DNA of 64,000 bases from Escherichia phage vB_EcoM_JNE01: the sequence record OR670491, one strand, 5' to 3'. Numbering within the stretch: position 1 is the stretch's first letter; each line of letters begins with the position of its first letter. Under the pieces are notes generated by a model, which was not told the origin of the DNA, did no database searches, and was given only the letters and a program-made list of their open reading frames with translations. Of the stretch, positions 50,433 through 53,090 are shown piece by piece. The position numbers were made by a program, and so were the translations under genes.

Positions 50433-51119
50433 ATGGCTACAATGCTTGATCGATATGGTGTTCCGCTCGCTGGCGGTGGTCGTATCTCTATGAAACAACC
50501 AAAAGCAAAATACAAATTCCGTGTTATTTTCTTTGGTTTCGGTGCTAATGATGACGGTAATATGATTACACTTGATACTAACACTGTTGGTGCGGTATCA
50601 GTATCACATGAAAACGTAACTGTTCATAGCTATAACAGTTCTGCACACTACAAAGGCAAATATACTTGGGATAGTATCGAAGTTGCATTCCGTGATTCAG
50701 TAGGTAACGCTTCTTCAAAAGCTCTTTACAACCAAATGCGTAAAGAATTTAACTACTACAGTCAAGAATCTCGTATGACTGATTCACAATTCAAATTTGA
50801 AATGTGGATTCAGGAACTTGATGGTTCTAACAGTGAAAATGCTACTAACCTATACGAAGGTACACTAAGTACTTGGGTATGTCAGGGTTGCTTTATTGAA
50901 TCCAGTAACTTTGGCGACTGGGATTATTCATCCAGTGAAGCTCAAGTTATCACCATGACTGTTCAACCTGATGGTTGTGCTAAATTGGGTCCAAATGGCG
51001 AAGCGTTCGGTGATGAAGTTAGTGCGTTCGGTAATCCGTCCACCTCTACCTCTATCAGCGGTGCACAAACCAACATTAGTAGTACTACTCTTCCAGATAG
51101 TAACTTCTACGAAAACTAA
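50433..51119 (+). CDS. tail tube protein
   Basis: Directly downstream of sheath; N-terminal MATMLDRYGVPLAGGGR...KAKYKFRVIFF typical of myovirus tube N-termini; start refined to ATG 50433 (RBS aaaggag). Confidence 0.7.
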   Translation: MATMLDRYGVPLAGGGRISMKQPKAKYKFRVIFFGFGANDDGNMITLDTNTVGAVSVSHENVTVHSYNSSAHYKGKYTWDSIEVAFRDSVGNASSKALYNQMRKEFNYYSQESRMTDSQFKFEMWIQELDGSNSENATNLYEGTLSTWVCQGCFIESSNFGDWDYSSSEAQVITMTVQPDGCAKLGPNGEAFGDEVSAFGNPSTSTSISGAQTNISSTTLPDSNFYEN

Positions 51120-51132
51120 TTTAATAAAGTTT

Positions 51133-51160
51133 AAGCCTCGAACTTGTTCGGGGCTTTTTT
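51133..51160 (+). terminator. intrinsic terminator
   Basis: AAGCCTCGAAC-TTG-GTTCGGGGCTT then TTTTTT. Confidence 0.55.
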
Positions 51161-51206
51161 TATGCTAAATAAAGTATATACCTTAAAAATATAATAAGAG
51201 GTTGCT

Positions 51207-51983
51207 ATGGCAAATAACATGATTAGTAAATATGGCGTTCCTTTACCATCTGGTCGTAACCGTTCCATGTTACAACCTAAAGCAAAGTACAAATTCAGAG
51301 TGATAGTTTATAACTTCGGTACTGAAATTGATGAACGTGACCATATTGCATTAGACGTAGATAAAGTTGATCGTCCTACAGTATCATTCAATACTCATAA
51401 ACTTTTTCAATTTACTACGAACACATCATATATTGGTAGTTACGATTGGGAACCAATTACACTAACAATCCGTGATTCTGTCGGTAACGCTTCTGCAAAA
51501 GCACTATCCAGACAATTACAAAAACAAATTGACTTTCAGCGTAGAATTACATCCAGAACAGACCAAGACTATGGCTCTTATAAGTTCGGCATTGTTATTC
51601 AAATGTTGAATGGGCGAAACTCAGATGATACAATAGATAACTTGGCAAGAAATACTGCTACATCAGCAGCTACATCGTTAACAAATAATGGTGGTCTTGT
51701 CAATGCTGTTGACCAATTTATTGGGGGTTCAACATACAATAGTGCAGGTGTTATGGAATACTTTGTACTAACTGGATGTGTCATTCAAAATATATCTTAT
51801 GATTCGTTGGATTATAGTTCTAGTAATTCTGTGGAAATGACTATTTCAATTAAGCCTGATAACTGTATCCAGTTTGACAACATTGAAGAAATGTACAGTA
51901 CTCGTATTAACTCACTATTACCTGAAAACGTCAATCAAGGATTAGATATAATTGACCGTGTTTTCGGTAGTATCGGATTTTAA
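51207..51983 (+). CDS. tail tube paralog (tube or tube-initiator-like)
   Basis: N-terminus MANNMISKYGVPLPSGRNRSMLQPKAKYKFRVIVY is clearly paralogous to 50433 gene; RBS aagagg. Confidence 0.6.
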   Translation: MANNMISKYGVPLPSGRNRSMLQPKAKYKFRVIVYNFGTEIDERDHIALDVDKVDRPTVSFNTHKLFQFTTNTSYIGSYDWEPITLTIRDSVGNASAKALSRQLQKQIDFQRRITSRTDQDYGSYKFGIVIQMLNGRNSDDTIDNLARNTATSAATSLTNNGGLVNAVDQFIGGSTYNSAGVMEYFVLTGCVIQNISYDSLDYSSSNSVEMTISIKPDNCIQFDNIEEMYSTRINSLLPENVNQGLDIIDRVFGSIGF

Positions 51984-51995
51984 GGGGAGTGAAAT

Positions 51996-53090
51996 ATGAG
52001 TGATTTTTTTGATTCCTTTGTCAGTACTGGCACGAATATTGTAAGTAGTGTTATTGACAACATCGAGATTGTTCGTGATCCAGCATTTGAAAACTATAAC
52101 GCAGCCCAACGCGTGTTCGGTACAGCAGGAGAAGGTGGTTTTTCTTTCTATAACTTACCTAAGTTTAAGAATAGTTTTATTATTGAATTCGAACTTACTC
52201 CATTTGCTAAGAACTTTATTAAAACACAATTACCAGATACACATACAGACTTTGATGCTAATAATGTATCTTGCTTTGTTAAAGATGTTACTTTACCTAG
52301 TTTTGGATTTAACTTAGAAACAGTAAACCAATATAACAAAAAACGTTTAGTTACTGGTGAAATAAACTATAAACCTAGTACCGTACTTTTCTATGATACA
52401 GTAGATAGTGCAGCATACCTATTAATGGATGCATACCGTAAGTATTATTATGGTGATTTCTTTGCGAAATCTGAACAATCTTACCGTAATGACGTTCTAA
52501 GTACTCCAGAAAACTTTAACGCACTTGGTGCAAACTGGGGTCGTTCTGTTATGAACAATGGTAACTACGATAACCAGTACTTTTTCAAATCTATCAATAT
52601 CTACGAGATAGATAATGAAACATACACAGTACACAACATGATTAACGTTTTCATTGAAGATGTTCAATTGGAAACTAAATCAATGGAAAGTGAAGGTGAG
52701 CCAGCAATTCTCGGCTTAACAATGCGTTATGAAGGGTGTAACAACTTCGGACCTGAAGGGTACTTGAGTATCGGTGTTCCTACTATGGAAATCGCCCAGT
52801 TAATCACTGATACAGAGGGCTTGGGTGTGAGTGGATTCTTTAAGTATTTCGGTGAGTTGGATGACAAAACCAAAGGTTTGACAACAATTGGTAAAATTAT
52901 TCGAGCAGGAACGTCGGTTAGTGATATAATCAGCAGTGCTGGTGATATCTTACGAGGTGACATTACTTCTGATACTATCCGTAACATTGGTTCTGCTGTA
53001 ACACGAGGTGCAAACGCTATTGGTTTAGGTAGCATAGTATCTGATGCAAGTTCAAAGTTCGGTTTAGGTAACATACTAGGAGATTTTTAA
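51996..53090 (+). CDS. tube-fold-like structural protein with Gly/Ser-rich C-terminal extension
   Basis: Central [31 protein letters not shown]...FYDTVDS resembles tube-protein core pattern; C-terminus has repeated G/S-rich segments. Confidence 0.4.

Follow-up and report, generated by a model that had tools for sequence, protein, structure and literature searches.

Three tube-fold genes behind the tail sheath gene of a RaK2/121Q-type jumbo myophage: a probable major tube protein and two putative minor ring proteins

Why does a contractile-tailed phage carry three tube-like genes in a row behind its sheath gene, and which of them builds the tube? The question is raised by positions 50,433 to 53,090 of a 64,000-nucleotide stretch of Escherichia phage vB_EcoM_JNE01 (record OR670491; the window is this whole stretch), in which three genes, here called T1, T2 and T3, follow the tail sheath gene. 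An earlier note, made from the letters alone, had described two clear tube paralogs and a third tube-fold-like protein with a Gly/Ser-rich tail, and had likened them to a tube, tube-initiator and baseplate-hub series. We find here the tail-trunk module of a jumbo myophage of RaK2/121Q type, in which T1, T2 and T3 are all tube-fold proteins (gp19/Hcp fold), T2 by homology. The best overall explanation, which we consider probable, is that T1 is the major tail tube and that T2 and T3 form low-copy rings at the tube ends. The module comprises the following features:

47383..50046, + strand: contractile tail sheath, 887 amino acids (Pfam Phage_sheath_1C, E 1.4e-14; phrog_10581 tail sheath, 1487 bits)
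50056..50084, + strand: intrinsic terminator after the sheath gene (9-bp GC-rich stem and T-run; hairpin on both strands)
50433..51119, + strand: T1, most likely the major tail tube protein, 228 amino acids, 25.1 kDa
51133..51163, + strand: intrinsic terminator between T1 and T2 (10-bp stem and T7)
51207..51983, + strand: T2, tube paralog of 258 amino acids, putative minor ring protein (tube terminator or first-ring adaptor)
51996..53090, + strand: T3, remote tube-fold paralog of 364 amino acids, putative minor adaptor ring protein

Positions 47383-53518 are 99.4% identical to Escherichia phage Turkey5 (PQ471516.1, 351 kb), an Asteriusvirus/RaK2-like jumbo myophage, and about 83% identical to 121Q, PBECO4, phAPEC6 and other Asteriusvirus/RaK2-like jumbo myophages. 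That these are three tube genes is already known from public records, and their arrangement follows known logic from T4 and contractile injection systems (CIS). In GenBank, Turkey5 is labelled with a tail sheath protein, three tail tube proteins and then 'TnsA'; for 121Q, RefSeq names gene 551 tail sheath, each of genes 552-554 tail tube protein and gene 555 head closure (T4 gp4-like). The orthologs (121Q 552-554; RaK2 gp042-044; phAPEC6 gp275c-273c; Turkey5 XMR01781-83) are the same genes in the same order at 83-99% DNA identity, and nothing substantive differs between them; each trio shares one label, be it 'tail tube protein', 'structural protein' or 'baseplate-tail tube complex'. Sheath, T1, T2, T3 and a gp4-like gene are thus the normal, already annotated order across the RaK2/121Q group. 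We found no paper that gives the three tube-fold proteins distinct roles: the RaK2 paper left the tube unidentified and proposed gp106w/gp107w, and the phAPEC6 paper never mentions a tail tube.

The sheath gene and the three genes behind it are all + strand open reading frames (ORFs) at the stated coordinates, and the two clear paralogs are as the earlier note had them. A ribosome-binding site, AAAGGAG, precedes the T1 start codon (ATG at 50433) by 7 nt, and this start agrees with the Turkey5 annotation. T1 and T2 are 32% identical (BLASTP, E 2e-35), share 22 of 37 N-terminal residues, including YGVPL and QPKAKYKFRVI, and both match phrog_4542 'tail tube protein' (E 5e-84 and 5.5e-79). The third protein also proved to be tube-like: T3 matches phrog_13438 'tail tube protein' (E 1.9e-221) and, weakly, phrog_4542 (E 1.2e-6), and hhalign against the profile of the T1/T2 family pairs T3 residues 47-271 with T1 residues 15-201 at 97.5% probability (E 7.6e-12). 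Pfam PF06841 was not reached by T1, T2 or T3, and PDB sequence searches with single sequences and with profiles of T1, T3 and the family alignments gave no significant match; the solved tube protein of phiKp24 has no detectable sequence relationship to them and was rejected as a template.

Structure prediction, which the earlier note had suggested as a check, gave tube folds resembling gp19 and gp54 for the two proteins modelled, T1 and T3, and not unrelated folds. AlphaFold2 models built with the family alignments have a mean predicted local distance difference test (pLDDT) of 69 for T1, with the core (26-200) mostly at 70-90, and of 58 for T3, with the core (59-272) mostly at 70-88 and both termini below 50. 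As in solved tube proteins, the predicted core is a beta-sandwich with a single alpha-helix at its side. Against solved structures the T1 model scores 12.4 with Pvc1, 12.0 with Pvc5, 11.7 with both T4 gp3 and gp54, and 10.8 with gp19, and the T3 model scores 9.4 with gp3, 9.3 with Pvc5, 9.2 with gp54 and 8.8 with gp19; sequence identity in the Pvc structural alignments is just 9-17%. Judged by these models, the fold is unable to separate tube, initiator and terminator, given that T4 gp3, gp54 and gp19 score almost equally.

The two paralogs differ from T1 in what is attached to the common core. T2 has, relative to T1, an insertion of 32-33 amino acids rich in Gly, Ser, Thr and Asn (approximately residues 146-178, nt 51642-51740) and a C-terminus unrelated to that of T1, and in the alignment both the insertion and the divergent C-terminus are kept in all T2 orthologs. 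T3 consists of an N-terminal helix (1-46), the tube-like core (47-272, nt 52134-52811) and a conserved, helical, Gly/Ser-rich tail (273-364, nt 52812-53087), in which Gly and Ser make up 29% of the 92 residues versus 12% in the core. The tail is as conserved as the core and is therefore a functional element and not a loose linker. In the window's own proteins the T3 tail has no similarity to the T2 insertion or the T2 C-terminus (z below 0). In L009, a distant RaK2-like relative (L numbers are our handles for the sequences compared), the T2-like gene at 8955-10001 encodes 348 amino acids with an insertion of about 80, and the T3-like gene lies at 10001-11095; there the insertion resembles the acidic C-terminal tail of the same T2 protein (z 5.7) and the T3 tail (z 5.5), and all three segments finish in a GGFF-type motif.

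Several independent observations point to T1 as the tube: the terminators, the codon ranking, a drop in transcription in PA5oct and the existence of relatives with a single tube gene. The terminator after the sheath gene (-16.7 kcal/mol, z -5.0) has its position occupied in 121Q too, and that after T1 (-13.6 kcal/mol, z -3.2) has counterparts directly 3' of the tube gene in 121Q, in L009, where its sequence is unrelated, and in the PA5oct-like phage Ettore, which makes four divergent lineages counting the window. Codon adaptation to the 121Q major capsid gene falls from 0.542 for T1 to 0.456 for T2 and 0.420 for T3, so that T2 and T3 rank with low-copy proteins (121Q portal 0.469, gp15-like protein 0.435). 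A preprint on PA5oct reports 'puzzlingly low' transcription of gp275-gp283 by RNA-seq and gives the sheath as gp272 and the head completion protein as gp277; from counting genes against Ettore (sheath, homing endonuclease, tube, T3-like, hypothetical, head closure) we infer that this block starts exactly at the T3-like gene. Finally, L008, L012, L013, L014 and Ettore each have a sheath gene, one T1-like tube gene and a T3-like gene, and T2 occurs, among the contigs examined, only in the window, 121Q and L009.

The same comparison dates the paralogs. Tube-fold genes lie directly downstream of the sheath gene in every relative examined; in the PA5oct group a homing endonuclease gene lies between the two (Ettore; L016 4460-6076). 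Since relatives outside the RaK2 group have a single tube gene, the pair of tube and T3-like genes is ancestral: T3 is an ancient, clade-wide partner of the tube gene, and T2 is a duplicate of the tube gene specific to the RaK2 lineage, with a 32-amino-acid insertion.

The T4-type late promoter TATAAATA is absent upstream of these genes, and a scan for sigma-70-type promoters found no more sites than expected by chance. Over the whole 64 kb the TATAAATA motif occurs once versus 7.8 times expected from shuffles; it is depleted although the phage group encodes an annotated late sigma factor (121Q gene 591). The spacer from the sheath terminator to T1 is about 390 bp (50085-50432), and its equivalent in L009 only 39 bp; it holds a 39-amino-acid ORF (50129-50248) that is called hypothetical in Turkey5 and has no annotation in 121Q.

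How does this set compare with the tube proteins of T4? T4 likewise has one major tube protein and several single-ring paralogs of the beta-sandwich-plus-helix fold (gp19, gp3, gp54 and gp48), and T4 gp13-, gp15-, gp4-, gp6-, gp25- and gp5-like partners are all found in the 121Q genome. T4 gp19, gp3 and gp54 all belong to phrog_45 and gp48 to phrog_230; gp19, alone among the T4 proteins, also matches phrog_4542, the T1/T2 family (E 5.3e-10). Hidden Markov models (HMMs) of T1, T2 and T3 score below 5 bits against T4 gp19, gp3, gp48, gp54 and gp27, these models being narrow, and only the broader PHROG profiles link the window proteins to T4. With hhalign, the family profiles reach less than 1% probability against single T4 sequences (T3 family versus gp48, 0.2%). 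Neither method gave a signal for gp3, so none of the three comes out as closer to gp3 than to gp19 or gp54, and these comparisons do not establish one-to-one orthology with gp3 or gp54. The series proposed in the earlier note therefore stands in part: there is a tube-fold set behind the sheath, but no gp27-type hub, which has two tube-like domains per chain (T1, T2 and T3 each have one core), and no match of T1-T3 to phrog_230, the family of the gp48 cap. The tube terminator, gp3 in T4, is a candidate role that the note had not listed. The HMMs found no fourth tube paralog in the window and 121Q 250.8-348.5 kb, and no further match to a tube family or phrog_230 appeared among about 25 structural proteins scanned against PHROGs.

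There are also differences from T4. The window has three recognisable paralogs and T4 has four; the window trio is clustered after the sheath, whereas the T4 genes occupy three loci (19 after 18; 3 with 1, 2 and 4; 48 and 54 with hub genes); and the window proteins are larger, at 228, 258 and 364 amino acids versus 163 for gp19 and 176 for gp3. The 32% identity of T1 and T2 exceeds the approximately 22% between gp19 and gp3, the latter having a gp19-like fold in the T4 neck structure (PMC12929629), which points to an independent, later duplication. Another parallel in layout may be Pvc1, Pvc5 and Pvc7 (Afp1, Afp5 and Afp7) of extracellular contractile injection systems, presumably likewise a major tube protein, a close paralog and a divergent tube-fold protein with an extra domain; here we take Pvc1, from PDB titles, to be the major tube and Pvc5 to be its close paralog, which appears in the PVC baseplate structure 6j0n. 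Unlike in that series, the extra part of T3 is a Gly/Ser-rich helical tail, and T3 has no Pfam domain of any kind, LysM included.

Taken as a mechanism, T1 would stack as hexameric rings inside the sheath, in about 150 copies because the phAPEC6 sheath has 25 rings, and the intrinsic terminator after T1 would partly set stoichiometry. T2, T3 and the gp4-like gene would then be read as a tightly packed, weakly expressed unit. T2 and T3 would each form a low-copy hexameric single ring, with one face compatible with the tube and the other altered for a non-tube partner, linking the tube ends to such partners as gp54 and gp48 do at the T4 baseplate and gp3 does at the head. T3 would be the tube initiator (gp54- or Dit-like) at the baseplate-tube junction, its C-terminal tail acting as a partner-binding or outward-projecting module. 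T2 would be either a capping ring, that is, a gp3-like terminator beneath the gp15-like sheath terminator, or a Pvc5-like second adaptor ring, roles that its loop insertion and new C-terminus would suit. Paralogy, tube fold, synteny, conserved terminators and codon-bias ranking come from our analysis; the copy numbers, the formation of rings and the end that each minor protein occupies we infer.

Several points weigh against this explanation. L008 has no terminator between its tube and T3-like genes, which are only 5 bp apart. The codon adaptation of T1 is intermediate, below that of the sheath (0.613) and the scaffold (0.616), the gene numbers of PA5oct were mapped by ourselves, and the models of T1 and T3 are monomers of moderate confidence. 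The virion presence of the orthologs is known from published work, and that mass spectrometry has no sign of an abundant T1. In RaK2, the orthologs of T1 (gp042) and T2 (gp043) gave 5 and 3 peptides and that of T3 none; in phAPEC6, T1 (gp275c) gave 2 peptides (9%), T2 (gp274c) 3 (16%), T3 (gp273c) 7 (30%) and the sheath, whose ortholog is detected in both virions, 36. Peptide counts are not quantitative and the two studies disagree with each other, and we rejected them as a measure of copy number. The gene context of T3 is the remaining difficulty: its translation is coupled to that of a head-completion gene, and it has a gp13-like neck gene, not the baseplate cluster, for a near neighbour. 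The neighbours concerned are:

45492..46298, + strand: neck protein, T4 gp13-like (head-tail adaptor Ad2; phrog_211, E 1.2e-40; the 121Q ortholog is a T4-gp13-like neck protein)
46662..47294, + strand: deoxynucleotide monophosphate (dNMP) kinase, T4 gp1-like, adjoining the sheath gene upstream (the 121Q ortholog, 550, is a deoxynucleotide monophosphate kinase)
53090..53518, + strand: T4 gp4-like head completion protein with a TnsA-like nuclease fold (Pfam Tn7_TnsA-like_N, PF08722, E 3.8e-20; phrog_218 head closure, E 1.5e-42)

T2 and T3 are 12 bp apart, and the start of the gp4-like gene overlaps the stop codon of T3 by 1 nt. The dNMP kinase keeps its position 5' of the sheath gene in L009 (PF21448 DNMK) and in Ettore, and in L008, L009, L015 and Ettore the T3-like gene has a gp4-like gene immediately or shortly behind it. 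T4 has its gene 3 flanked by gene 1 (dNMP kinase) on one side and by genes 2 and 4 on the other. The window's context, with a gp1-like gene ahead and T3 joined to the gp4-like gene, recalls this T4 order, 1-3-2-4, and speaks for T3 as a terminator.

Could the two ends be swapped, with T3 as the head-proximal tube terminator (the role of T4 gp3), docking the gp15-like sheath terminator and the neck, and T2 or an unrecognised protein as the initiator on the baseplate side? The co-transcription and overlap with the gp4-like gene, the block shared with the gp13-like neck gene and the dNMP kinase, and the recurrence of the gp4-like gene in distant relatives all speak for it. Yet T4 gp3 matches only phrog_45, and neither phrog_4542 nor phrog_13438, and the gp15-like gene is about 28 kb away, in a block that also holds baseplate genes. 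Almost every solved phage tail or CIS has a tube-fold initiator or Dit-like ring, whereas having a terminator of tube fold is described as a peculiarity of T4 (PMC12929629); for this reason, and because lineages with only a tube and a T3-like gene would otherwise be without an initiator, we favour the baseplate. The lectin or receptor-binding extensions of T3 relatives, described below, are a third reason, as they recall 'evolved' Dit. On balance the baseplate-tube junction is the likelier place for T3, the head end is a clear second choice that we would not bet on, and the full exchange of roles between T3 and T2 seems unlikely to us.

Two other readings concern T1 itself. T1 and T2 might co-assemble the whole tail tube, in mixed hexamers or alternating rings, with T2 as a second major subunit, as their nearly identical N-terminal segments and overall identity, their joint presence in virions and their similar peptide counts would allow; we regard this as very improbable, since a conserved terminator parts T1 from T2 in three T2-bearing lineages, T2 has the codon adaptation of a minor protein, related phages make tails with a single T1-like gene, and the T2 insertion (32 amino acids, about 80 in L009) would have to fit at least about 75 times between tube and sheath. 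Alternatively, T1-T3 could all be accessory and the tube be made by the abundant, beta-rich gp106w/gp107w, as the RaK2 authors proposed, whose 121Q orthologs (genes 617/618; L011 18062-19365, outside the window) have a codon adaptation as high as the capsid gene (0.65 and 0.745), the RaK2 proteins being detected with 13 and 11 peptides at more than 50% coverage, far above gp042 and gp043. However, that proposal was based only on size, abundance and predicted beta content. 121Q 617/618 belong to phrog_9326, have no tube-family signal, are missed by the T1/T2/T3 HMMs and are encoded on the strand opposite to the major capsid gene, about 10 kb downstream of it, and the extra capsid protein layer of phAPEC6 needs abundant proteins; T1, by contrast, has a tube fold, adjoins the sheath gene and belongs to a family matched by T4 gp19. 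The pair is probably an abundant, capsid-associated decoration pair, and its being the tube is the least credible of the readings weighed here.

The T3 family is large, and its C-terminus varies. Searched against 1.84 billion representatives, its profile matches 1,786 clusters at E <= 1e-3 and 224 at E <= 1e-30; members keep a conserved core, lengths range from 189 to 1,310 amino acids, the gene usually lies directly after the tube gene, and all 38 members sampled match both phrog_13438 and phrog_4542. Isolated phages with T3-like genes comprise the RaK2 group, Atu_ph07, Sinorhizobium phage Phosso and PA5oct-like phages. In metagenomic relatives long proteins are encoded at the T3 locus (L013 7139-11071; L014 6567-9863 and 9875-13153), where the T3-family proteins have 1,098-1,310 amino acids and F5/8 type C (discoidin) domains. 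One such protein has an N4 gp65-like 'non-contractile tail sheath' (NCTSP_N) domain after the tube-like core, and in L014 a second discoidin protein (1,092 amino acids) directly follows the T3-family protein. T3 of the window itself lacks a lectin domain.

The Dit protein of siphophages is a hexameric ring of tube fold at the distal end of the tube, with a variable extension that sometimes bears a lectin ('evolved' Dit, with carbohydrate-binding modules). Some T3-family members resemble it in their F5/8 type C domains, but the tail here is contractile and the analogy runs through distant family members. The C-termini of the T3 family may range from a 90-amino-acid Gly/Ser-rich helical tail to lectin or N4 gp65-like receptor-binding extensions of at least 700 amino acids. 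We would go further only speculatively, in a proposal that we rate as doubtful: that the family represents uncharacterised tube-fold adaptor rings with a swappable C-terminal module in jumbo and other large myophages.

The wider surroundings are those of a large phage genome. The 64-kb window indeed contains no portal, capsid or terminase gene, as the earlier note observed; this is an effect of window size, to be expected in a genome of about 350 kb, and the module order is standard for this phage group. In 121Q the genes for portal, protease, scaffold and major capsid protein are found some 62-68 kb downstream of those for the tube. The baseplate and gp15-like genes come sooner, at 26-60 kb downstream, and are carried by the other strand, with an HNH endonuclease gene, noted as group I intron-associated, between the gp25-like and gp6-like baseplate genes. 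Behind the gp4-like gene, a run at 53549-58161 is orthologous to 121Q 556-561; five of its six genes are in 'virion structural protein' PHROG families or annotated as structural in 121Q, and it holds very acidic low-complexity proteins (for example the Asp/Glu-rich 56776-57783) and a 503-amino-acid protein with a Lys/Glu/Pro-rich region. Two Turkey5 labels differ from ours: the dNMP kinase gene (46662-47294 here) is called 'phosphomevalonate kinase', and 'transposon Tn7 transposition protein tnsA' is a misleading label for the gp4-like gene.

The overall importance of the locus is modest; what interest remains lies in the parts that T2 and T3 play and in the T3 family, which is large and has variable C-termini. 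The evidence points to the T1 ortholog (RaK2 gp042, 121Q 552) as the tube, which fills a gap in the RaK2 literature, and would turn the annotation of three equal tail tube proteins into one major tube and two tube-like adaptor or terminator proteins. A T3-like second tube-fold gene stands alongside the tube gene throughout a very large clade of big myophages, and these genes are a concrete target for cryo-electron microscopy of jumbo-phage baseplates and necks. If the proposal for the T3 family is true, the family would be the contractile-tail counterpart of the 'evolved Dit' proteins, and the ring at the tube-baseplate junction would join in host-surface binding or membrane penetration and not be a passive spacer.

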